Part shown: positions 36,610 to 46,600 of the stretch, piece after piece
How the letters are laid out: each line of letters starts with the position of its first letter
Position numbering within the stretch: position 1 is the first letter of the stretch
NCBI GenBank assembly: GCA_964410125.1
Contig: CAYPGQ010000001.1
Coordinates: 54,549 to 118,548 of the forward strand
From: an uncultured Eubacteriales bacterium
GTDB taxonomy: Bacteria > Acidobacteriota > Aminicenantia > Aminicenantales > Aminicenantaceae
Length of the DNA stretch: 64,000 nt
Direction of reading: 5' to 3'
Notes under the pieces: model-generated
Told to the model about the DNA's origin: nothing
Seen by the model: only the letters and a program-made list of their open reading frames with translations
Databases searched by the model: none
Program-made: the position numbers and the translations under genes

Positions 36610-39417
36610 TTATTTATCGAACCAATAATCTGGGAGTATAACTGCTTTTCTCTTTAACACTTTTCCGTCAGCCATCAACGCTATTGTATATTCACCTGGT
36701 TTGACACGATAATACGCATACAGCCGGTCTGTTAAGCCCGGAGGCTGATGGACTCTTGTCTGTAATGATCGGCCCCATTTGTCCACCTCTTCATCAGGAT
36801 CGCCATACCATTCCACAGTGTCGTAGTAATCGAAGAATTCCTCGTCTTCCTCCATGAATTTTTGCCATCTTTCCCAACGGGCAATTTCCTTTTGAGTCCT
36901 CTCTCTCCGCCAGGTCATCCCCCACTCTACTCTGTTCAGGCTTTGTGTATTCGATCCAGAAAATTCATTGATGATCCGTTTTTTATCATAAACAACAAAC
37001 TTCACATCCCCTTTTATTGGCTGTTTCAGGTAATAGTTAATCACTACAGAATGGGACTCGTTTTCGCCGGCAAAGTTTTGGGCGCTTGTGGCTTTCTGGC
37101 TGGGCATGATCCACTGCACCTTCGGTTCAATGGCGAACATGTAGACATCTTTCAATAAAACATCCGGAGTTAATTCCTGCAAGGGAGAGATGCCAGTGAT
37201 GAAAAATCCCCTGCCGTGTGTTCCCACAACAAGATCATTCTCCCTTGGATGGATCACAAGATCATGCACTGGGATGGTTGGCATATTATTTTTCATCTTA
37301 GTCCAGTTTTGCCCCCCATCTATGGTGACATACACAGCCTTATCCGTTCCGATAAACAGCAAATGTGGATTTTTGTGGTCCTCGCGAATGACATTGACCG
37401 ATTCCTCGGGCAAATTACTGACAATTGAGGTCCATGTATCTCCAAAATCTAAGGTTTTGTAGACAAAAGGCCTGAAATCATCATTGTGAAATCCTGTATA
37501 GGTTAAGTAGGCTGTTCCTGCATCAAAATGGGAAGCGATGATTCTGCTGACCCAATATCCCGGATTTTTTGGAATCCGGTCATCCAACTTCGTCCAAGTT
37601 TTCCCCTCATTTCTTGTTAAATGGACATTCCCATCATCCGTTCCGACCCAGATCACACCCTTTTCAACAGGCGATTCATCTATAGTTGTTATCGTGCAAT
37701 ACTGGACAGCACCCACTCCTTTGATCTTTTGAGGATCGTTTGTGGTCAAATCCGGGCTTATTTGCTCCCAGCTTTCCCCCCTATTGGAAGAACGAAGGAC
37801 CATGTTGGCCCCATGATAAATTACTTCTGGATTGTGAGGGGAAAGCAAAAAAGGAGCGTTCCAATTAAACCTAACGCCAGATTCCCTTTCTATCTGGATA
37901 TGTTTTCTCTTCCCGGTCTTCTGATCGATCCGGCTTAGTCCGCCGAATTGGGATTCACTGTACAACCAGCGGCTGTTGGTCGGATCGACCTGGTTATAAA
38001 ATCCGTCTCCTCCTTGGACATGTTCCCAATCTTCGAACCGTATCGGGAAACGGCCCTTTTTTGTGCTGGGCCCCTTCCACGAGCCAAAATCCTGCATGCC
38101 GCCGTAGACATTGTATGGATAGTCCATGTCGACTCCGAGGGCATATAGTTGTGCCATGGACAATTCGTCCGGATGATACCAGTTTTTACCGGAATCATAG
38201 GTGATGGCCATTCCATAGTCATAGCCCATCAATATATGCCTGGAATCGTGGGGATCGATCCACAACACATGATTGTCTCCTCCGTAGCGAAAGGCTCTCC
38301 TCCAGGTTTTCCCTCCATCTGTCGATTCATCTGCCCGAGAACTCAACACAAAAACATGATCCTCATCGTTGGGATCGACAATGATCTGGCCGTAATAATT
38401 TGATCTGTTTCCGATGCTTTTCCCTTCCGGGCTGACCAGCCGCCAGGATTCCCCTCTGTCATCGCTGCGGTATATTCCGTGTCCGACTGTGGGTTTGCTC
38501 GCCGGTTTCCCTTCGAACAATTCCTTATAGCGTTTTTCATAAGACATGCCTGGTATGTTGGCATTATCTACTGTGGCATAAAGGATTTTCGGATTTTTGG
38601 GGTAAATGGCCAGACCGATTTTCCCGAGCATTCCCCCTGGAAGGCCATTGATCAGTTTTTTCCATGTTTTCCCTTCATCGACTGTCTTGTGTATCCCGCT
38701 TCCTGGACCTGCTGTTCGAAAGGACCAGGCCCAACGCCTTCTGTCATAACTGGATGCATAAAGGATATCTGGATCGCCGGAATCCATTACAAGATCGGTG
38801 GCTCCTATATATCTATCATAAACAACAACCTCCAGTGATTTTTTCCATGTTTTCCCTCCATTTGACGTCTTGTATACACCTCGCTCGGTATTCTCGGAAT
38901 AAAGATGCCCTTGGGCTGCCACATAAACAATATTTGGATTTTCAGGATGGATCACGACACGGCCAATGTGATGGGATTCTTTTAATCCCATGTATTTCCA
39001 GGTCTTTCCTCCATCTGTAGATTTGTACATCCCGTTGCCAAAATATGTGCTATTGCGAAGGTTGGCCTCACCTGTTCCGATCCACACGATGTTTGGATCG
39101 GATGGTGCGACTGCGATATCTCCGATGGATGAAATATTTTCATGATCAAAAACAGGAAAAAAGGAATGCCCGTTATTGATCGTCTTCCACACTCCTCCCG
39201 GACCAGCTCCGACATAAAATGTATGAGAATCCTGTTTTGCTACAGCAAAGGCCACGACTCTCCCGCCCTGCCGAGTGGGGCCTATCTCCCGGGAATGAAA
39301 AAATTTCAAAAACTCCTCAGAGAGCTCCTGACCGAAAACATCCGATAGCAATAGGGAAAAAATCACCATGAGCCCTATGCTTAAGTGTTTTAAAAGTAGC
39401 CTCTTTTTCAAAACCAT
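36610..39417 (-). CDS. VPS10/BNR-repeat (sortilin-like) secreted protein
   Basis: REIGP..GGR, repeated S/TxDGGxTW BNR motifs, RFNWNAP, DLVVGTHGRG. Confidence 0.88.
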   Translation of the reverse strand: MVLKKRLLLKHLSIGLMVIFSLLLSDVFGQELSEEFLKFFHSREIGPTRQGGRVVAFAVAKQDSHTFYVGAGPGGVWKTINNGHSFFPVFDHENISSIGDIAVAPSDPNIVWIGTGEANLRNSTYFGNGMYKSTDGGKTWKYMGLKESHHIGRVVIHPENPNIVYVAAQGHLYSENTERGVYKTSNGGKTWKKSLEVVVYDRYIGATDLVMDSGDPDILYASSYDRRRWAWSFRTAGPGSGIHKTVDEGKTWKKLINGLPGGMLGKIGLAIYPKNPKILYATVDNANIPGMSYEKRYKELFEGKPASKPTVGHGIYRSDDRGESWRLVSPEGKSIGNRSNYYGQIIVDPNDEDHVFVLSSRADESTDGGKTWRRAFRYGGDNHVLWIDPHDSRHILMGYDYGMAITYDSGKNWYHPDELSMAQLYALGVDMDYPYNVYGGMQDFGSWKGPSTKKGRFPIRFEDWEHVQGGDGFYNQVDPTNSRWLYSESQFGGLSRIDQKTGKRKHIQIERESGVRFNWNAPFLLSPHNPEVIYHGANMVLRSSNRGESWEQISPDLTTNDPQKIKGVGAVQYCTITTIDESPVEKGVIWVGTDDGNVHLTRNEGKTWTKLDDRIPKNPGYWVSRIIASHFDAGTAYLTYTGFHNDDFRPFVYKTLDFGDTWTSIVSNLPEESVNVIREDHKNPHLLFIGTDKAVYVTIDGGQNWTKMKNNMPTIPVHDLVIHPRENDLVVGTHGRGFFITGISPLQELTPDVLLKDVYMFAIEPKVQWIMPSQKATSAQNFAGENESHSVVINYYLKQPIKGDVKFVVYDKKRIINEFSGSNTQSLNRVEWGMTWRRERTQKEIARWERWQKFMEEDEEFFDYYDTVEWYGDPDEEVDKWGRSLQTRVHQPPGLTDRLYAYYRVKPGEYTIALMADGKVLKRKAVILPDYWFDK

Positions 39418-39481
39418 CACGCCTCCTAAATACAAAATATTTCTTTCTTGTAGACTTATCGCAACTGTTTCGGGCTTCAGC

Positions 39482-40864
39482 TCACCTGATCACATGCCAC
39501 TTGTGTTCTTGTGGCCGGGCAAGGTATTGCAATCCATCTTTCGTGAAAGCTGTGATCTGTCCGATGCCCAACTCGACACCGTGTTTCCAACCGGGAACAG
39601 CAATTCTGGTGTGCGGTTCAAAGGCATAAAGGGTGTTGAAATGCAGCTTATGATTATTCGTCACGATCGACGTGGGATAATAGCCAGTGCCTGATGTCAT
39701 GCCGGCAACATAGGATTTCCTGTCAAACATATAACCTCCCAGCCAGAAACGCCATATGTACATCGGGGGAGGATGAAATCCCAATTCGGTCTCGATGATC
39801 CCCTCCTCCGGAATTATCTTCCTGGATGCTGCGACAATTTCCTTCCCTGTGCGCCTTACCTTGAATTCTTTCCTGAACAGATCCTGGATTCGGTTGACTT
39901 TTCGCAACGCCTCTTTCAATGGCTCTGGGACATCGGTCTCGCCTTTTTTCAATACGTAGGCATGCTGGTGAGAATCGGTAATCAGTCCGTACAAATAAAG
40001 ATCGGTATCACAACTGACAACATCGCCTCGTCGAATGATTACGCTGACTCCATTGTTAGTTCTTCCGTTTCGAAAAAATTCGGGAGGATCATCATATTTG
40101 GCCATGTTTTTTTCATTTCTCTGCACATTGATGGTGGGATAGTTTTCCATATCCAGGCCCAGTTCCAGGTATTTATGCAGGACCCACCAGTTCAAATCTT
40201 CTGTCGTTGTGACATCAGGAATAACCACTTTATTCGAAAACGCCTCGGCAATAACCTCATTGGCGACTCTTTGCACATGACGGTAAACACTTATCCTTTC
40301 TGGGCCGACTGTCTCAAGCCATCTCACTCCCAATGTCCAGGAATCAATGGACCGAGAGGCATACTTTTTCCCCAGGGCCAAGATCATTTTTTCCTTGTTA
40401 TATTGATCAATGGCGATTGTGTTGGGATCCCGCTCTTTCACTAATTCTGAAATATGTTCATAATCCCGGGGTTCCACATTTTCGATCTTTTTTCCTGTGT
40501 CATAAAACATAAGAAATCTAGGAAGTCTTTGCGAGCCTGGAGGAGCATATTTGCTGGGATAGGTCAAACCCTGATGATTCGCAGGTAAAAGAGAAACATA
40601 AACCGGACCTTGATTATTATAATAAAGATCGGCTTCATCATCGCGGATGATCCACATATCGATACCCTGTTCCCTCATTACCATCGGAAGCACATGCATT
40701 ATTTTCCATTTCCACCACTTTTCTGTGAGCTTCACCCTTTCTCGCAGGGGCAAAATATTCTTGCTGTCTTCGATCGCTACAATTTGGGCTTGAATAAAAA
40801 TCTGACTTGTCAAAATCCCCAATATCAATACAAACAAAAACCATAATAAACCTTTTTTGCTCAT
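39482..40864 (-). CDS. secreted M24 family (Xaa-Pro) aminopeptidase-like protein
   Basis: LPMVMREQGIDMW, IIRRGDVVSCD, LITDSHQHAYVL, YAFE. Confidence 0.8.
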   Translation of the reverse strand: MSKKGLLWFLFVLILGILTSQIFIQAQIVAIEDSKNILPLRERVKLTEKWWKWKIMHVLPMVMREQGIDMWIIRDDEADLYYNNQGPVYVSLLPANHQGLTYPSKYAPPGSQRLPRFLMFYDTGKKIENVEPRDYEHISELVKERDPNTIAIDQYNKEKMILALGKKYASRSIDSWTLGVRWLETVGPERISVYRHVQRVANEVIAEAFSNKVVIPDVTTTEDLNWWVLHKYLELGLDMENYPTINVQRNEKNMAKYDDPPEFFRNGRTNNGVSVIIRRGDVVSCDTDLYLYGLITDSHQHAYVLKKGETDVPEPLKEALRKVNRIQDLFRKEFKVRRTGKEIVAASRKIIPEEGIIETELGFHPPPMYIWRFWLGGYMFDRKSYVAGMTSGTGYYPTSIVTNNHKLHFNTLYAFEPHTRIAVPGWKHGVELGIGQITAFTKDGLQYLARPQEHKWHVIR

Positions 40865-40883
40865 CGTTCCTCCTCCTATTTAC

Positions 40884-41099
40884 CTATTTATGCCATCGCC
40901 TATTGTTTTTCATTTGATTGGGCGTTCTCGGGAGTTTCTGATCCTGCATGGCCGCGTTATATGCGAAACTCGCGCGGTTGAATCCCTCGTCCCTGATATT
41001 TTCTATCATTTCGTAATCGATTTTTTCCTGGGATGACACTAAAAAAGAACTGAGAATTCCGAATGCAACCACCGACAAATATTTTCCATATTTTTTCAT
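40884..41099 (-). pseudogene. M28-type peptidase remnant with large in-frame internal deletion
   Basis: Signal plus QEKIDYEMIENIRDEGFNR (typical N-terminus) fused to ASFAYNAAMQDQKLPR (typical C-terminus); AAGGAGG RBS; family recognised from memory. Confidence 0.65.
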
Positions 41100-41307
41100 T
41101 CGTCCTCCTTTTCAATTAGCTTGAATTAAAATTAAATATGTCCGCTCAATAGGAAGGCCTTTATCCAACATATCCGCACCAAATAATGATTTTTGTCCAC
41201 CTTTTCACGTTTGAGCTTTTCATACTACCACTTTTCTGTCTTGTTTATCTAGGAAAGTTTTACTATTCTATAGAGAATATGTCCAAAATCTCAATGGAGA
41301 TTCAAGA

Positions 41308-42579
41308 ATGATTAAAACCACCAAAACCGCCCCAAAATTGGACCGCCGTCAGTTTCTGAAGATAAGCACACTGGCGACTGCATCCGGAGCCTTGATGGGA
41401 ACGAGTGCAAATTGCTTTCCTGTTAAAATCACAGACAAATGCAAACGAATGGACCAAAAAAACACGATTTTTGCGAGGCAGCTCTGGGACTTTGAATTTG
41501 TTAAAAGAATCGAAGCATCCATCGATAGATCAAGCATTGAAGCCCTGGAAAAAGTGAAAGGATGGACTCCTCTGGATGAGGCATTGGATGAAGCAGCATG
41601 GGCTCTGGACCATAAATTCGCCTCGGAGAGCGAAAACGGCCAGCCCCATTCCCAAGCTTATGAATGGGATGAACCTGTACGAAGAAATAAAGTTGAATTC
41701 CAAAATCCCAAAGATGCCAGCAGAAAAATCAAAAAAGCTGCACGCTACCTTGGGGCAGATCTCGTTGGAATTTCCCCCTATGATCCTCTCTGGACTTACT
41801 CCCGGCTGATCAAAGAAAACTTCGAATCGGAGCCAGACTCAGATGGAAGGCCAGAATTAGAGCATTTTGTCCCAGAATTTCCGTTTGAGCCAAAATCTGT
41901 TGTGGTCATTGCTGTTGAAATGGACTATGAAACAATCGCGCTTTCTCCATCATCCCTCGAAGGGGCAGCCACTGGCCTCGGGTACTCCCGAATGTGCTCT
42001 GTGGGATATTCGGTGGCAACTTTCATTCGAGCCCTGGGGTATCGAGCTTTTGCCAACGGGAACGATGTTTCCTTGAGCATTCCTTATGCAATCGCAGCTG
42101 GATTAGGTGAACTGGGCCGCCACGGTTTATTGATAACTCCGGAATACGGACCCCGAGTGAGATTGGTGAAGATTTTCACTGAACTGGAGCTCAAACCTGA
42201 CAAGCCCAAGACTTTTGGAGTATGGGAATTCTGTAAACACTGTAAGCGCTGCGCTGATTCCTGTCCTTCCCAGGCCATTTCAACGGGTGAACCCACATTG
42301 GAGGGCAAAACGATTTCCAACAATCCAGGTGTCTTGAAGTGGTATATCAATCCTGAAAAATGCATCCAGTTCTGGAGGGAGAACGGATCAGACTGTGCCA
42401 ACTGCATAACAGCCTGCCCTTTTAATAAACTTCCGATGTGGCATCATCAGCTTTCGGCAGGAATAGCAGCTCTTCCGGCTGCACCAATACACACGTTAAT
42501 GGCTAAAATGGATAAATTCTTCGGATTCGGGGATATCAATAACAGACGGGCGAACGCAGCCTTCTGGGACGAGGATTGA
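41308..42579 (+). CDS. rdhA: reductive dehalogenase catalytic subunit
   Basis: Tat motif DRRQFLK; IKKAARYLGADLVGI; AGLGELGRHGLLITPEYGPRVR; Fe-S motifs FCKHCKRCADSCP and C..CANCITACP. Confidence 0.92.
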   Translation: MIKTTKTAPKLDRRQFLKISTLATASGALMGTSANCFPVKITDKCKRMDQKNTIFARQLWDFEFVKRIEASIDRSSIEALEKVKGWTPLDEALDEAAWALDHKFASESENGQPHSQAYEWDEPVRRNKVEFQNPKDASRKIKKAARYLGADLVGISPYDPLWTYSRLIKENFESEPDSDGRPELEHFVPEFPFEPKSVVVIAVEMDYETIALSPSSLEGAATGLGYSRMCSVGYSVATFIRALGYRAFANGNDVSLSIPYAIAAGLGELGRHGLLITPEYGPRVRLVKIFTELELKPDKPKTFGVWEFCKHCKRCADSCPSQAISTGEPTLEGKTISNNPGVLKWYINPEKCIQFWRENGSDCANCITACPFNKLPMWHHQLSAGIAALPAAPIHTLMAKMDKFFGFGDINNRRANAAFWDED

Positions 42580-42583
42580 TACA

Positions 42584-42877
42584 ATGAGTCTTATAACATT
42601 TTGTCTAGGAGCCATGGTTGTTTTAATTTTATGGGGAATTACAGGTTGGATCAAAAAGAACCAAATCAAACTTTCCTGGCCTTCCTGGTTGGGAGTCATC
42701 CTGACCGCATTTCTTGCATTTTTCACGGTCGCATGGTTACTGAGTTGCATTATAGAGCGAGAATCACAGGCAGCCGGAATGGGACTTTTGATTTTTGGGG
42801 CCCTGGCCTTTATCGCTTTCGGGCTGACACGGAAAAAAATCATCAAAGACACCAAATCCCAAGCTAAAGGAAAATAA
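42584..42877 (+). CDS. rdhB: reductive dehalogenase membrane anchor
   Basis: 97 aa, 3 TM, WxxW (WPSW) and ExExxA (ERESQAA) motifs; 4 nt after rdhA. Confidence 0.85.
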   Translation: MSLITFCLGAMVVLILWGITGWIKKNQIKLSWPSWLGVILTAFLAFFTVAWLLSCIIERESQAAGMGLLIFGALAFIAFGLTRKKIIKDTKSQAKGK

Positions 42878-42898
42878 AAAGAGACTCGACCTCTAAAC

Positions 42899-44080
42899 AT
42901 GAACCATAAAAATTATAAGATCTTGAACAAAACATCCATCCTGAAAATTATTGTTTGGTTTACAGTTATTATCTCTTTGACCTTCGCCTATATTTATGGA
43001 TTTATCCGAAAAGACACACAAGTGTTGACACTCCTCCGCAGCATTTTTTCTGAAAAGGTTAAATTCAAAACAAGAGGCAATAATCCCCTGTTACTGGAGA
43101 TCTATGACCAGGAAACAAGAAAATTTCTGGGATATTGCGCAGTAGAAAAATCTCAGGGATGGGGCGGACCATTGCTTGTAGCTGCCATCATCGATTCGGG
43201 AGGCACCCTTAAAAAGGCCATAGTCTTAGATCACAAAGAAACCCCATCCTTTTTCCTTAAGTTACAAAGACACAATTTCTTAGATCAATTTTCTGGGAAA
43301 GGGATTTCTGAACCATTCATTATGGAAGAGGATATAGATACGATCACTCAAGCTACCGTCACGTCCAAGGCAGTAACAGATGCCGTGAGAACAGCTTCTC
43401 ATGCGCTAGGGAAAAAGCTTTTAAATCTCCAAATCAAGGATACGCGAGCGAGGTGGAATTTCGGAATCAATGAACTGATCCTACTTCTTCTGTATTTAGG
43501 AGTATTGATCAACATAAAACTAAAATCGAAAATTATGCGTTATATAGTCATGACAACAGCTTTTATCTTTTTGGGCTTCTATCTCAATTCTGCCATCGCC
43601 ATCGGTAACATCTCCCAGATATTGCTTGGATTTATTCCCTCGATCAAAGAAAATATATTTTGGTGGATTCTCGTAGGGGGAGCATTGCTTATGCCGCTTG
43701 TTCTGAAAAAGAATCTCTATTGTTCCTGTGTCTGTCCATTCGGAATTCTCCAGGATTACACAGCAAAACTAAGTGGTATCAACATCGTTATGCACAAAAA
43801 GAATGTGAAACTCGCCAAAACTATTGCTTACTTCCTAACCTGGATTGCCTTTATGATTATATTCATCACCTCAAATCCTGCACTGGGAAGTTATGAACCG
43901 TTTGCCACGTTCTTTAGACTCGAAGGGATGGGAATTCAGTGGTACATCCTTCCGGCCGTTGTTCTTGGATCCTTTATCTTGACAAGATTTTTTTGCCGAT
44001 TCTTCTGTCCGGTGGGAGTTATATTGAACATACTGATCAAATCCAGACAGAGTCTGGAAAATATTTTAAAGAGACAATAA
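42899..44080 (+). CDS. rdhC: RdhC/NosR-like membrane flavoprotein (FMN-binding plus CX3CP motifs)
   Basis: GWGGP, HKETP, DTITQATVTS flavinylation-like motif; TM region with CSCVCP and CRFFCP. Confidence 0.85.
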   Translation: MNHKNYKILNKTSILKIIVWFTVIISLTFAYIYGFIRKDTQVLTLLRSIFSEKVKFKTRGNNPLLLEIYDQETRKFLGYCAVEKSQGWGGPLLVAAIIDSGGTLKKAIVLDHKETPSFFLKLQRHNFLDQFSGKGISEPFIMEEDIDTITQATVTSKAVTDAVRTASHALGKKLLNLQIKDTRARWNFGINELILLLLYLGVLINIKLKSKIMRYIVMTTAFIFLGFYLNSAIAIGNISQILLGFIPSIKENIFWWILVGGALLMPLVLKKNLYCSCVCPFGILQDYTAKLSGINIVMHKKNVKLAKTIAYFLTWIAFMIIFITSNPALGSYEPFATFFRLEGMGIQWYILPAVVLGSFILTRFFCRFFCPVGVILNILIKSRQSLENILKRQ

Positions 44081-44082
44081 AA

Positions 44083-44178
44083 ATGATCAAAATGAAGATC
44101 AAAGAGGCCATCGCAATGGCCTTGATTTTGCTTACTTTCGGGCTTATCATGGCATATTTCTACCAAATACTTTTTTAA
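44083..44178 (+). CDS. small single-TM protein
   Basis: MIKMKIKEAIAMALILLTFGLIMAYFYQILF, starts 2 nt after the rdhC stop. Confidence 0.4.
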   Translation: MIKMKIKEAIAMALILLTFGLIMAYFYQILF

Positions 44179-44254
44179 AACTCCTCCCTATGCTATACTT
44201 TCTTCCTTTCAAGAATCGAGGTCAAATTTCATCAATTTATAATGAGGTAAAAAC

Positions 44255-45559
44255 ATGAAAAAAGCCATTATTATGGGTGCTGCGGGAAGGGATTTCCACA
44301 ATTTCAACGTTCATTTTCGAAAAAATGAAGATCTTCGTGTTGTGGCTTTTACAGCCACCCAAATTCCTGATATAGAAGGCAGAAAATATCCTCCTCAACT
44401 CGCAGGAAAAATATACCCTGAGGGGATTCCTATTTATCCTGAAGAAGAGCTCGTCTCATTAATCAAGGATAATGAAGTTGACGAAGTTTATTTTTCCTAC
44501 AGCGACGTCCTGCATGAGTATGTGATGCACAAAGCATCGGAAGTGATGGCAGCAGGGGCATCATTCGTTCTCTTAGGACCGGATGAGACTATGATTAAAA
44601 GCAGGCTCCCTGTTGTCTCGGTGTGCGCAGTAAGAACAGGGTGCGGAAAAAGCCAAACCAGTCGAAAAATATCCCTTATACTAAAAAATAATGGCCGAAG
44701 AGTCGTCGTCATCCGCCACCCGATGCCGTATGGAAATCTGGCTGACCAGAAGGTCCAGCGTTTTGAAAAATACGAGGACCTTGCCAAACACCATTGCACC
44801 ATCGAAGAGAGGGAGGAGTATGAACCACACATCAGCAATGGAATCATTGTCTACGCTGGTGTGGATTTCCAGGCCATCTTGGACGAAGCAGAAAAAGAAG
44901 CGGACATCATCATATGGGATGGAGGGAACAATGATTTTTCTTTTTATAGGGCTGACCTTGAAATTGTCGTGGTTGATCCTCACAGAGTCGGTCACGAGCT
45001 CCTATATCATCCTGGGGAGACAAATTTTAGAAGAGCAGATGTGATCGTCATCAACAAAATAGGAACTGCGGATGAGGAAAAAGTCAATCTTGTGACAGAA
45101 AACATTAAAAAATACAATCCGAAAGCACGCGTTGTCCGCGCTAACTCCCCAATCTATGTCTCTGGAGGAGAGGAAATCGCGAATAAAAACGTCTTGGTTG
45201 TCGAGGATGGTCCCACCTTAACTCATGGCGAAATGTCTTATGGAGCTGGAATCGTTGCTGCCAACCAATTCGGGGCTGCTACAATCATAGATCCAAGACC
45301 TTTTTCAGTCGGAAGCATTGAGGGCACATTCAAAAAATTCAAACATTTGGATAAAGTCCTCCCAGCCATGGGTTACGGAGAACAACAAATAGCTGAGCTA
45401 ACTGAAACTATCAATCGCAGCGATTGTGATCTTGTTGTCAGCGGTACACCAATCGATCTTAGCCGATTGATCGAATCCAACAAAAAAATTCTTCGTGTCC
45501 AATACGATATTGAAGAAATCGGATCGCCAGATTTAGAAGAAATTCTTAAAGATTTTTAA
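44255..45559 (+). CDS. arginine synthetase (ArcE)-like P-loop enzyme (often annotated GTPase / cyclic 2,3-DPG synthetase)
   Basis: IMGAAGRDFHNFN, AVRTGCGKSQT, RHPMPYG, WDGGNND, VEDGPTLTHG; directly upstream of OTCase. Confidence 0.8.
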   Translation: MKKAIIMGAAGRDFHNFNVHFRKNEDLRVVAFTATQIPDIEGRKYPPQLAGKIYPEGIPIYPEEELVSLIKDNEVDEVYFSYSDVLHEYVMHKASEVMAAGASFVLLGPDETMIKSRLPVVSVCAVRTGCGKSQTSRKISLILKNNGRRVVVIRHPMPYGNLADQKVQRFEKYEDLAKHHCTIEEREEYEPHISNGIIVYAGVDFQAILDEAEKEADIIIWDGGNNDFSFYRADLEIVVVDPHRVGHELLYHPGETNFRRADVIVINKIGTADEEKVNLVTENIKKYNPKARVVRANSPIYVSGGEEIANKNVLVVEDGPTLTHGEMSYGAGIVAANQFGAATIIDPRPFSVGSIEGTFKKFKHLDKVLPAMGYGEQQIAELTETINRSDCDLVVSGTPIDLSRLIESNKKILRVQYDIEEIGSPDLEEILKDF

Positions 45560-45601
45560 TCCAGGTTTTAAACGCGATTGAGGATAAAAAGGGAGGATAA
45601 A

Positions 45602-46600
45602 ATGGCTCACAACTTGAAAAACCGAAATTTTCTGAAATTATTGGATTTCACACCAGAAGAAATTCGCTTTTTGCTGAATCTCTCGGCTGATCTCAAAAAA
45701 GCAAAATATGCTGGGTCAGAGCAACCAAGATTAATCGGGAAAAACATTGCCCTCATTTTTGAAAAAGCTTCAACCAGGACAAGATGCGCTTTTGAAACAG
45801 CGGCCTTCGATCAAGGAGCGAATGTGACATATCTCGGACCGACCGGCTCCCAAATCGGAAAAAAGGAAACCATAAAAGATACGGCTCGCGTGCTGGGAAG
45901 AATGTATGATGGCATTGAATATCGAGGTTTTGGGCAGGCGATAGTCGAAGAATTGGCAAAATACTCTGGAGTGCCGGTGTGGAATGGTCTCACAAATGAG
46001 TATCATCCAACCCAAGTTCTTGCTGATCTGTTAACAATGATGGAGCATTCTGACAAGCCTCTAAACCAAGTGGCATTCGCTTATTTGGGCGATGCGAGAA
46101 ACAACATGGGAAATTCGCTGCTAATAGGGGCAGCCAAGATGGGAATGGACTTTCGTTCAATCGCACCAGCATCGATTCAGCCTGATGAAAAACTAGTCGA
46201 AGATGCCAAAAGAATTGCGGAAAAAACAGGCGCAAAAATAGTATTAACGGAGGATATCGAACAGGGTGTAAGGAGCTGTGATTTTCTCTGCACCGATGTC
46301 TGGGTATCCATGGGAGAGCCAGAAGATGTTTGGAAAAAGAGAATTGAGCTGCTGAAGCCATATCAGGTGAATAAAGAGACCTTGAAAATGACCAACAATC
46401 CACAAGTTAAATTCATGCACTGTTTGCCCGCATTCCACAATTGCGAAACATCTATTGGCGAAGACATCTATCAAAAATTTGGACTAGAAGCGATGGAAGT
46501 CACTGAGGAAGTTTTTGAATCTGATGCCTCCATTGTTTTTGATGAGGCGGAAAACAGAGTCCATACGATTAAAGCCATTATGGTTGCAACGTTAGCCTAG
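45602..46600 (+). CDS. argF: ornithine carbamoyltransferase (probably catabolic, ArcB-type)
   Basis: [37 protein letters not shown]. Confidence 0.95.

Follow-up and report, generated by a model that had tools for sequence, protein, structure and literature searches.

A cluster of three genes, rdhA, rdhB and rdhC, in an uncultured marine-sediment bacterium of the Aminicenantes is best read, at a probability of roughly 0.6, as an operon for a quinol-fed, membrane-bound respiratory-type reductive dehalogenase that relies on scavenged corrinoid. The cluster lies in the 64,000-nt window, i.e. the whole stretch of DNA that was analysed. It is a well-supported addition to the rdh genes already reported from Aminicenantes; earlier publications cover this gene family, this gene layout and this group of hosts.

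Organization of the rdhABC locus

The features of the locus, all on the + strand, are as follows.

40865-41307, +, leader of 443 bases, AT-rich (38% GC), from the divergent M24 peptidase gene to rdhA
41308-42579, +, rdhA, catalytic subunit of 423 aa, a corrinoid/2x[4Fe-4S] reductive dehalogenase, predicted to be Tat-exported
41344-41361, +, twin-arginine motif RRQFLK, RdhA residues 13-18 (regex match), followed by a hydrophobic stretch
42232-42267, +, first Fe-S motif, CX2CX2CX3CP, RdhA residues 309-320 (motif scan)
42361-42420, +, second Fe-S motif, CX10CX2CX3CP, RdhA residues 352-371 (motif scan)
42424-42579, +, C-terminal region of RdhA aligned with the two quinone-pocket helices of DhPceA (alignment to 8q4h_A)
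42584-42877, +, rdhB, 97-aa membrane anchor with three helices (hydropathy and motif scan, PceB match)
42899-44080, +, rdhC, 393-aa membrane flavoprotein of the NosR/NapH/RnfG kind (FMN_bind and Fer4_5 matches)
44104-44123, +, terminator-like hairpin with a T-rich tail, 24 bases 3' of the rdhC stop codon (consensus scan)

The complete respiratory-type rdhABC layout and the tight spacing described in the initial annotation are borne out by three intact open reading frames on the same strand, with gaps of 4 bases between rdhA and rdhB and 21 bases between rdhB and rdhC. In the leader, no sigma-70-like site was detected on the + strand, nor were inverted repeats, riboswitches or members of any other Rfam family; across the entire window, the Rfam scan returned one tRNA only. 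The hairpin downstream of rdhC probably marks the end of the operon, a weak indication because the region holds 8 such sites where 3.4 are expected. The neighbourhood scan covered 17 genes flanking the cluster (seven and ten), and none of these encodes a CRP/FNR-type, trigger-factor-like, corrin-synthesis or mobility protein, in agreement with the earlier remark that rdhK/rdhT, cobalamin and mobility genes are not adjacent.

A downstream gene for a 434-aa GTPase, which matches PF02492 in part (23.9 bits, cut-off 20.7), was rejected as an operon member, being separated from rdhC by 174 bases and the terminator-like hairpin. In related loci this gene is adjacent in L020 and about 3 kb off in L027, and it is unmatched within about 960 bases 3' of rdhC in L021. 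In locus L020, the peptidase gene and rdhA are also separated by a second M24 paralogue. A remnant of that paralogue in the window was considered and rejected, as the sole match falls inside the intact peptidase gene.

The catalytic subunit RdhA

By its profile scores, Tat motif, Fe-S motifs and Tyr/Arg pair, RdhA is the catalytic subunit of a respiratory-type reductive dehalogenase. In profile searches it scores 220.8 bits against TIGR02486 (cut-off 160.35) and 30.3 bits against PF13486 (cut-off 24.3). The concern that the protein might be a QueG is answered by the QueG model TIGR00276, against which it scores 61.6 bits, far under the cut-off of 200. The Tat signal and the two Fe-S motifs of the initial annotation were both recovered. 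The Pfam TAT_signal profile scores 19.1 bits, just under its cut-off of 22.7, and Arg13, Arg14 and Phe16 are at least 90% conserved among 24 aligned homologues. Residues 309-320 read CKHCKRCADSCP; the four cysteines of this motif (Cys309, Cys312, Cys315 and Cys319) and those of the second (Cys352, Cys363, Cys366 and Cys370) are invariant in 24 of 24 sequences.

The closest solved structure is DhPceA, a subunit of a menaquinol:organohalide oxidoreductase (8q4h_A, E-value 6.4e-79), followed by SmPceA (4uqu_A, 1.1e-57). RdhA Tyr226 and Arg285 align with DhPceA Tyr337 and Arg396, which are termed essential by the authors of that structure (PMC10624902); among the 24 aligned homologues, Tyr226 is invariant and Arg285 at least 90% conserved. 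The quinone-pocket residues of PceA are Lys489, His495, Arg499, Asp515 and Tyr520 (PMC10624902). RdhA retains the quinone-head residues as Lys374, His380 and Asp402, equivalent to DhPceA Lys489, His495 and Asp515, and carries Ala in place of Arg499 and Phe in place of Tyr520, so that two of five quinone-head or proton-path residues differ. In the same 24 homologues His380 is invariant, and Lys374, Trp378 and Asp402 are at least 90% conserved. These residues do not discriminate between modes of electron delivery, because the PceA pocket residues are conserved in quinone-independent organisms too (PMC10624902).

The membrane proteins RdhB and RdhC

RdhB matched no Pfam or NCBIfam family above cut-off in profile searches. 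It contains three hydrophobic segments, with Glu58-Arg-Glu60 in the loop joining helices 2 and 3, and it matches the PceB chain 8q4h_C (E-value 7.7e-07, residues 3-81 against 7-84), the motif falling on PceB Glu61-Arg-Glu63, ERE over ERE. The E-x-E motif shared by RdhB and PceB is named in PMC10624902. Glu58 is invariant in seven of seven RdhB sequences. These observations agree with the three-transmembrane RdhB of the initial annotation, just as the FMN and CX3CP features attributed there to RdhC were located by the searches described below.

RdhC comprises an FMN_bind domain at residues 87-166 (48 bits), a Fer4_5 match (52 bits) and two CX3CP motifs, CSCVCP at 275-280 and CRFFCP at 366-371. 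Seven hydrophobic segments were located by a crude hydropathy scan; because the final pair, 343-361 and 362-380, adjoin, the protein is read as having some six helices. Segments one and two flank the FMN_bind domain. The chain ends 22 residues beyond the second CX3CP motif, and no ferredoxin-type domain was matched in the profile search. The published description of RdhC is of six predicted TM segments, a peripheral FMN domain, two CX3CP motifs and no C-terminal 4Fe-4S motifs (PMC5928378). The curated 2018 RdhC set of that source holds Firmicutes, Chloroflexi, Proteobacteria and Bacteroidetes only.

The FMN motif reads T-Q-A-T-V-T, with Thr153 predicted to bear the flavin. It departs from the published consensus, [S/T]G[A/S]TX[S/T] with a flavinylated Thr (PMC5928378), in the replacement of Gly by Gln. 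Among 120 homologues Thr153 is kept in all 120, and the Gly position is occupied by Gly in 65, Gln in 41, Arg in 8, Ser in 4, His in 1 and Thr in 1. Of the 120, all but one retain the second CX3CP motif; the first was partly tallied, Cys279 and Pro280 being invariant in a 32-row alignment. Like NosR, NapH and RnfG, RdhC combines an outward FMN domain, here predicted to be flavinylated, with a membrane module that carries two CX3CP motifs, and it matches solved RnfG chains with an E-value of 4e-4. Unlike them, it belongs to an rdh operon and is without a C-terminal ferredoxin-type cluster domain, and its scores are far under the cut-offs (46 of 1000 for NosR, 38 of 213 for NapH and 44 of 102 for RnfG).

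Host and orthologous loci

The host belongs to the Aminicenantes, a group abundant in anoxic marine sediments and usually described as fermenters. It is not a known organohalide respirer, a possibility that the initial annotation had named as refuting its reading. Its guess of an Aminicenantes host is supported by eight orthologous loci at 66-89% identity, seven of which come from MAGs labelled Aminicenantes or Acidobacteriota and one from a MAG labelled Eubacteriales. The divergent M24 peptidase gene beside rdhA is kept in all eight. The A-B-C gene order is present in four other MAG loci; of six loci that could be assessed, rdhB and rdhC follow the orthologous rdhA in four and are missing in two, where the Tat-rdhA stands alone.

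In a 42-row tree, composed of database matches and MAG loci only, RdhA falls within an Aminicenantes clade nested among Deltaproteobacteria MAG sequences, beyond which lie sequences of Dehalobacter, Desulfosporosinus and Peptococcaceae. The nearest named sequences are 44-55% identical to RdhA and carry annotation only.

The genome is a MAG of 283 contigs, 90.4% complete with 3.4% estimated contamination. The operon sits mid-way in a 145.5-kb contig and has a GC content of 43.3%, compared with 44.6 +/- 3.8% for the genome. A public contig of 26.7 kb spans positions 39000-46000 with zero differences, although its run may be the source of this DNA; likewise, contigs from runs of three studies tile the region without differences, and each of these runs may be a source. 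Together with the A-B-C order in other MAGs, the matching public contig indicates that the locus is intact, in answer to the earlier concern about misassembly. No RNA run is listed among the public sequencing runs that match the locus. Eleven runs from cold seep, hydrothermal vent and other sediments contain 0.00-0.10 of the words of the locus.

rdhA genes in the genome and the lineage

The genome encodes five differently built rdhA genes. One belongs to a second cluster with rdhB and rdhC; other types are a hybrid N-terminal-helix form (contig C18) and a signal-less form (contig C220). Among 41 related genomes of the order, which include four single-contig genomes, the RDH cut-off is exceeded in 21, all in one family, and 20 of the 24 genomes of the host's own family exceed it.

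The initial annotation overstated the novelty of the locus, since rdhA in Aminicenantes is in print (PMC6472368, PMC12219181, PMC6797604). Reported are 31 rdhA genes in 22 MAGs, mainly of Aminicenantes and Bathyarchaeota (PMC6472368), respiratory rdhA-like genes of Aminicenantaceae from cold seeps (PMC12219181), and N-terminal-helix hybrid rdhA with two Aminicenantes entries among them (PMC6797604). These concern the same lineage and the same gene family, and the present cluster may already be in their supplements. The passages on Aminicenantes count rdhA, one of them also rdhB, and leave rdhC unmentioned; the term occurs 0 times in PMC12219181, outside its supplements.

Corrinoid, quinone and electron supply

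Of the genes for which a genome-wide search had been proposed, ApbE was found twice, and the corrinoid and quinone genes were found in part. A cobalamin riboswitch (98.7 bits) immediately precedes a gene with a TonB-dependent receptor plug. CobS and CbiC were not found in the host's own 90.4% complete genome, and CobS occurs in one of the 41 related genomes; activity would hence depend on outside cobamide. Gene absences in the host genome alone weigh little because of its incompleteness.

Neither known menaquinone ring pathway was detected: MqnA/D, and MenD above its cut-off, are found in 0 of the 41 genomes of the order, and the best MenB match in the host genome has 161 bits against a cut-off of 342.7. 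On the other side of the ledger, a MenA-like prenyltransferase gene is present, under every equivalog cut-off, as is a MenG/UbiE gene over its cut-off on contig C91. Complex I is complete, with nuoABCDEFGHI and three NuoL/M/N-type genes. Some quinone is probably present in the host, given that Complex I, the MenA-like prenyltransferase and MenG/UbiE are all encoded. Three [NiFe] hydrogenase large subunits are most like cytoplasmic group-3 enzymes, a provisional typing because all matches are below cut-off. The genome showed no periplasmic uptake hydrogenase like that of the Dehalococcoides supercomplex.

Proposed mechanism and alternatives

In the preferred reading, RdhA would acquire its corrinoid and two [4Fe-4S] clusters while folding in the cytoplasm and then be exported by the Tat system, for which the genome encodes TatC (239.5 bits). 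The three-helix RdhB would anchor it to the inner membrane on the outward side. On the model of PceA2B2, the C-terminal helices of RdhA would build a pocket together with helices 2 and 3 of RdhB, quinol would be oxidised there, and electrons would then pass through the two Fe-S clusters to the corrinoid, where an organohalide would give up its halide. NADH from fermentative metabolism of amino acids or sugars would supply the quinone pool through Complex I, RdhC would serve as an accessory redox protein flavinylated by ApbE on Thr153 outside the membrane, and corrinoid would be scavenged from outside. Natural organobromines and organochlorines of the sediment are a guess at the substrate. Counted against the quinol-fed reading are the undetected menaquinone ring pathways, the MenA-like score under cut-off, the changes at Arg499 and Tyr520, the failure to find CobS and CbiC, the lack of rdhBC in two of six loci, and the Gln in the FMN motif of RdhC.

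An unlikely alternative dispenses with the quinone pool. RdhC would be a true third subunit and transmembrane conduit, passing electrons from a soluble donor through its cytoplasm-facing CX3CP module and outward FMN domain to RdhA. The failure to detect a canonical menaquinone ring pathway in any of the 41 genomes is consistent with this, as is the grouping of Aminicenantaceae respiratory rdhA-like genes with the quinone-independent type (PMC12219181), which does not necessarily refer to the present clade. RdhC accompanies rdhAB in four of six loci and again in the second cluster of the genome, and the retention of Thr153, the second CX3CP motif and Cys279/Pro280 points the same way. Co-folding of RdhC with RdhA and RdhB gave an ipSAE of 0.54 compared with 0.05 for the best of three controls (pLDDT of the partner 75 or higher; 78% or more of contacts common to the runs). 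The calibration set comprised 80 solved complexes, 58 of which reached the mark, and 110 mismatched pairs, 2 of which did, counts that apply only roughly to a three-chain job with custom alignments; passing values at or below 0.60 came from only 7 of the 80 solved complexes and from both passing mismatches, so that the predicted contact lends weak support. Against a quinone-free route stand the encoded NADH:quinone oxidoreductase, MenA-like prenyltransferase and MenG/UbiE, and a hydrogenase complement that, as provisionally typed, is group-3-like only, with no periplasmic uptake enzyme seen. The PceA of Desulfitobacterium and Dehalobacter outnumbers PceC by about 50 to 1, and the active complex obtained on purification, PceA2B2, contains no PceC (PMC10624902). 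The two loci with a solitary Tat-rdhA likewise argue against an obligatory RdhC. The stricter proposal, that RdhC is a stoichiometric subunit of a quinone-free RdhABC passing electrons from CX3CP to FMN on Thr153 to the Fe-S clusters, with TQAT marking a subfamily, is more doubtful still.

The enzyme might instead dispose of reducing equivalents or toxic halogenated compounds in the periplasm of an organism that lives essentially by fermentation, opportunistically and with no growth-supporting terminal respiration. The cluster has no dedicated regulator or chaperone, its corrinoid has to be scavenged, only cytoplasmic-type hydrogenases were found, and five rdhA genes of different build, one signal-less, suggest broad, low-level use of diverse substrates. 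Tat export with a dedicated anchor is, however, the respiratory layout (PMC12219181). This alternative is improbable; it differs from the quinol-fed reading in degree only, since electrons that arrive by way of Complex I and a quinone would conserve some energy in any case. That RdhA is a corrinoid reductase of a non-halogenated substrate is highly improbable. The family does include QueG, an epoxide reducer, and the nearest named relatives are known by annotation, but the score is well over the RDH cut-off and far under that of QueG, the dehalogenase Tyr/Arg pair is kept, and partner genes of the rdhB and rdhC kinds occur specifically in dehalogenase clusters. Finally, a binning or assembly artefact that placed a foreign cluster in this fragmented, slightly contaminated MAG (one orthologous record being labelled Eubacteriales) can be dismissed as extremely improbable in view of the mid-contig position, the flanking genes shared by all eight orthologous loci, the typical GC content and the difference-free tiling contigs, with the caveat on their source given above.

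Comparison with known systems

The A-B-C order is common to the present cluster and pceABCT of Desulfitobacterium hafniense TCE1 and Dehalobacter restrictus (8Q4H; PMC10624902). Also shared are a Tat-type RdhA with two Fe-S motifs, the Tyr/Arg pair and the Lys, His and Asp at the quinone head, a three-helix RdhB with E-x-E, and an RdhC whose FMN domain faces outward and which bears two CX3CP motifs. The present cluster differs in having no pceT-like chaperone, transposon or regulator. Its RdhA is much shorter (423 aa compared with 503 in the solved DhPceA chain) and has the Ala and Phe substitutions described above, and the FMN motif of RdhC is TQAT rather than [S/T]G[A/S]T. Unlike the Pce hosts, the organism is a Gram-negative-type member of the Acidobacteriota in which neither a menaquinone ring pathway nor genes for cobamide assembly were detected.

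Sulfate reducers of the Desulfoluna spongiiphila type resemble the present host in their marine sediment habitat, rdhABC layout and facultative use of the system beside another energy metabolism (bioRxiv 10.1101/630186). In the tree, the closest sequences outside the Aminicenantes clade include those of Desulfobacterales and Deltaproteobacteria MAGs, at only about 41-55% identity; Desulfoluna itself is likened by description. In contrast to the present host, Desulfoluna-type hosts possess corrinoid genes, and their respiration of organohalides has been demonstrated (bioRxiv 10.1101/630186).

Implications

The known enzyme mechanism of reductive dehalogenases is unchanged by the present locus. 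As a conserved and complete dehalogenase module, predicted to be membrane-bound and containing one of five rdhA genes in its genome, it adds weight to published suggestions that Aminicenantes contribute to the natural cycling of halogens. The host is expected to need cobamide from outside and either to obtain quinone by an unknown route or to use RdhC in place of quinone. If RdhC does act as a third subunit, this would provide a function for the long-unexplained C subunit of reductive dehalogenases.

Operon layout and host genome

Three open reading frames were found on the + strand at exactly the coordinates claimed in the initial annotation, which described a complete respiratory-type rdhABC operon at 41308-44080. 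They are followed by a terminator-like hairpin:

41308-42579, + strand, rdhA (423 aa)
42584-42877, + strand, rdhB (97 aa)
42899-44080, + strand, rdhC (393 aa)
44104-44123, + strand, terminator-like hairpin after the rdhC stop codon (consensus scan)

The gaps between the genes are 4 bases (rdhA-rdhB) and 21 bases (rdhB-rdhC). The hairpin is weak evidence, as eight terminator-like sites were observed against 3.4 expected. Scans of the 443-base, AT-rich rdhA leader returned no recognisable promoter, palindrome or riboswitch. At 43.3% GC, the operon does not stand out from the rest of the genome (44.6 ± 3.8% in 2.8-kb windows). Downstream, a gene for a 434-aa protein labelled 'predicted GTPase', which has a partial match to CobW/HypB/UreG (44255-45559), directly precedes an ornithine carbamoyltransferase gene (45578-46600). 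The GTPase gene also follows the operon in two orthologous loci, L020 (90% identity) and, at a distance of about 3 kb, L027 (62%).

The window is located mid-contig on a 145.5-kb contig of a 5.08-Mb MAG comprising 283 contigs, with an estimated completeness of 90.4% and contamination of 3.4%. Its DNA is present in full in nine runs from three studies that carry the labels marine sediment or subsurface metagenome, and each of these runs is a possible source of the DNA; contigs from four of these source-candidate runs cover or tile 39000-46000 with zero differences, and one contig of 26.7 kb spans the whole interval.

When one genome per species was scanned, 21 related loci came up. The eight closest, 66-89% identical, comprise six titled Candidatus Aminicenantes, one Acidobacteriota and one 'uncultured Eubacteriales'; the other 13 are at most 46% identical and belong to Desulfobacterales and other Deltaproteobacteria, Dehalococcoidia, Thorarchaeota and KSB1 MAGs. 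The Aminicenantes-like host suspected earlier is supported by the titles of most of the eight closest loci, with which the source names from the protein search agree. L020 (CAZOJY010000096.1), titled 'uncultured Eubacteriales bacterium', is 83-90% identical to the window with the same order across seven genes, and because it has this identity and gene order in common with an Aminicenantes window, its taxonomic label is probably wrong.

RdhA belongs to the dehalogenase family

Against the dehalogenase models, RdhA scored 220.8 bits (TIGR02486, cut-off 160.35) and 30.3 bits (PF13486, cut-off 24.3), compared with 61.6 bits against the QueG model (cut-off 200). These profile scores assign the protein to the dehalogenase family and separate it from QueG, with which clustering had been considered. 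Motif scans located the following elements in the protein:

Residues 13-18, twin-arginine motif RRQFLK
Residues 309-320, Fe-S motif CX2CX2CX3CP
Residues 352-371, Fe-S motif CX10CX2CX3CP

The best solved relative is PceA of the Desulfitobacterium hafniense menaquinol:organohalide oxidoreductase (DhPceA; 8q4h_A, E 6.4e-79), followed by Sulfurospirillum PceA (1.1e-57), the cytoplasmic NpRdhA (2.3e-23) and QueG (5e-10). PMC10624902 describes Y337 and R396 of DhPceA as essential and also names K489, H495, R499, D515 and Y520. When these residues are mapped through the 8q4h_A alignment, RdhA Y226 and R285 align with Y337 and R396, and K374, H380 and D402 with the quinone-head residues K489, H495 and D515; R499 is replaced by Ala and Y520 by Phe. 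The window RdhA was aligned with 23 of the 120 homologues listed. Every sequence in this alignment has Y226, H380 and the eight cluster cysteines, and conservation reaches at least 90% at R285, K374, W378 and D402. Longer homologues such as P0052 and P0065 (601-709 aa; Desulfitobacterium sp. PCE1, Peptococcaceae) are 44-49% identical over 81-86% of the window RdhA and carry about 250 extra residues.

RdhB and RdhC

No Pfam or NCBIfam family scored over its cut-off for RdhB. Hydropathy and motif scans identified three hydrophobic segments and E58-R-E60, and the protein matches PceB from the cryo-EM entry that also holds DhPceA (8q4h_C, E 7.7e-07) over residues 3-81 versus 7-84, with ERE aligned to ERE.

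RdhC contains an FMN_bind domain (residues 87-166), a Fer4_5 region and CX3CP motifs at 275-280 and 366-371. A crude hydropathy scan gave seven hydrophobic segments, the last two adjoining, which were read as about six helices. Matches to NosR, NapH and RnfG are weak and all sub-threshold. Judged by sequence, the protein appears to fit the RdhC definition of PMC5928378 in all but the FMN motif: residues 150-155 read T-Q-A-T-V-T and depart from the consensus [S/T]G[A/S]TX[S/T] stated there. The Gln is common to all four alignable window-type RdhC proteins (window, L020, L021 and L027); the paralogous RdhC encoded elsewhere in this genome carries the canonical TGAT. The motif Thr is kept in all of the best 120 database homologues (P0121-P0240), among which the position before Ala-Thr is occupied by G (65), Q (41), R (8), S (4), H (1) or T (1).

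Conservation and phylogeny

A divergent M24 peptidase gene adjoins rdhA in 8/8 Aminicenantes-type loci. In L020, L021, L022 and L027 rdhA is followed by rdhB and rdhC; L023 and L024 lie on contigs that end before their presence can be judged. Two further Aminicenantes MAGs (L025:4981-7852 and L026:4897-7716) encode the orthologous Tat-signal rdhA without rdhB or rdhC, followed by three convergent genes whose translations, read by eye, look like a TRAP-type transporter. Taken together, the kept M24 neighbour, the pattern of rdhB and rdhC across loci and the ordinary operon GC indicate that the cluster was passed down within the lineage, with rdhB and rdhC lost now and then, and was not recently transferred.

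A 42-row RdhA tree was built by a quick method from the window protein, five other sequences of the same genome, 26 of the 120 listed protein matches and 10 of the 21 related loci, and was rooted on the QueG-like gene of this genome. The window RdhA falls within a clade, starred in the tree, whose members are Aminicenantes and unnamed metagenome sequences. Around this clade lie MAG sequences of Deltaproteobacteria and Desulfobacterales, and beyond these, sequences of Dehalobacter, Desulfosporosinus and Peptococcaceae. No row of the tree is a biochemically characterised reference enzyme.

Five rdhA genes over the RDH-model cut-off were found in the genome, scattered in the tree and not grouped together:

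Window, contig C1: Tat-rdhA, rdhB and rdhC, the cluster under study
C63:9540-11324: Tat-rdhA and rdhB
C40:32914-34412, continuing on C120:3-1456: rdhB, Tat-rdhA and rdhC, split over two contig ends
C220:3176-4228, continuing on C241:3044-3259 (- strand): rdhA without signal peptide, split over two contig ends
C18:45921-47264: rdhA with N-terminal transmembrane helices, the 'hybrid' type of PMC6797604

The C40/C120 RdhC is 31% identical to that of the window, with FMN_bind and Fer4_5 present. Among 41 genomes of the order Aminicenantales, RDH matches over cut-off occur in 21, namely this genome and 20 of 24 others of its family, and in none of the 16 from other families. RdhC is rarer than rdhA (8/41 genomes at E ≤ 1e-10), and the window type, 83-88% identical, is present in three of five congeners.

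Cofactor and quinone inventory

The genome encodes TatC and, as had been proposed for inspection, ApbE, in the form of two flavin transferases. It also carries nuoABCDEFGHI, with NuoD and NuoF over equivalog cut-offs, and three NuoL/M/N-type genes. The search for quinone synthesis was answered in part. In addition to this complete NADH:quinone oxidoreductase (Complex I), a MenG/UbiE methyltransferase scores over cut-off here and in 34/41 genomes, and a MenA-like prenyltransferase, below all its cut-offs, has orthologues of at least 63% identity in 15/41 genomes, this one counted. Neither MqnA/D of the futalosine route nor MenD of the classical route (over cut-off) was found in any of the 41 genomes, and MenB over cut-off was not found in this 90.4%-complete MAG, the only genome searched for it. 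The naphthoquinone ring precursor would be either taken up or made by a route other than these two.

As for corrinoid salvage, the single cobalamin riboswitch hit in the genome (98.7 bits, C219:2819-2992) lies directly upstream of a gene for a TonB-dependent receptor with a Plug domain (start near C219:3066; L045:1748-2917). CobS was not found here and turned up in only 1/41 genomes; CbiC was not found in this MAG, the one genome searched. By its gene content, the lineage would appear to scavenge cobamide, although it carries many corrinoid enzymes. Since all 41 genomes were searched and four of them are single-contig, the absences of CobS, MqnA/D and MenD are unlikely to be assembly gaps.

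Three [NiFe] hydrogenase large subunits are closest to cytoplasmic group-3 enzymes, a provisional typing as all matches are below cut-off. One, a sulfhydrogenase-like subunit of 580 aa on C87 (L016:136-1878, - strand), has an in-frame C-terminal maturation protease domain (TIGR00072, residues 449-578), an unusual fusion.

Proposed electron transfer

Homology and gene inventory together suggest, with a probability of roughly 0.6, that the operon functions in the manner of PceA2B2, which is the simplest reading. NADH from fermentative metabolism would feed Complex I, and the resulting quinol would be oxidised at the RdhA-RdhB interface. From there, both clusters would relay the electrons to a corrinoid obtained by scavenging, and this cofactor would dehalogenate a substrate on the outer side of the membrane. 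The undetected quinone ring pathway is the main weakness of this reading.

Co-folding bears on a different and rather unlikely route, in which RdhC itself would carry electrons across the membrane without quinone. Three chains were co-folded with custom alignments, and RdhC was scored against RdhA 36-423 plus RdhB. The ipSAE of 0.54, compared with 0.05 for the best of three controls, lends this route weak support at the level of a predicted model, with partner pLDDT of at least 75 and at least 78% of contacts shared between runs. A known structure is probably not where the score comes from, because the solved complex found (8Q4H) contains PceA and PceB without a C subunit. In the tool's calibration, 58 of 80 solved complexes passed, as did 2 of 110 mismatched pairs; the passes at 0.60 or lower comprise only 7 of the 80 solved complexes plus both passing mismatches. 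According to the tool, a pass in that range misleads more often than it holds, unless the proposed interaction was already likely. Against a conduit role, PceC of Desulfitobacterium/Dehalobacter is about 50-fold scarcer than PceA and is missing from the purified active complex, according to PMC10624902.

Relation to published work

Published work provides the following background. Twenty-two MAGs, chiefly of Aminicenantes and Bathyarchaeota, were reported to carry 31 putative rdhA genes and were proposed to be organohalide respirers (PMC6472368). Cold-seep RdhAs were divided into prototypical respiratory, transmembrane, cytosolic and 'novel' types, and respiratory rdhA-like genes of Aminicenantaceae were placed with the quinone-independent type; the text never mentions 'rdhC' (PMC12219181). 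Two Aminicenantes RdhAs with N-terminal helices appear in PMC6797604, and PMC5928378 lists RdhC from Firmicutes, Chloroflexi, Proteobacteria and Bacteroidetes only. A full-text literature search found no description of an Aminicenantes rdhABC cluster or RdhC; survey supplements may list one.

The initial annotation is right in its observation and reasonable in its interpretation. Relative to the literature searched, the order-wide lack of cobamide assembly genes (CobS in 1/41 genomes; CbiC searched in this genome) is new, as is the paradox that enzymes which use quinone are encoded while no known pathway to the quinone ring was found. The same applies to the Gln form of the flavin motif in RdhC, to the presence of four architectural rdhA types within one genome, and to rdhC-bearing clusters in this phylum.
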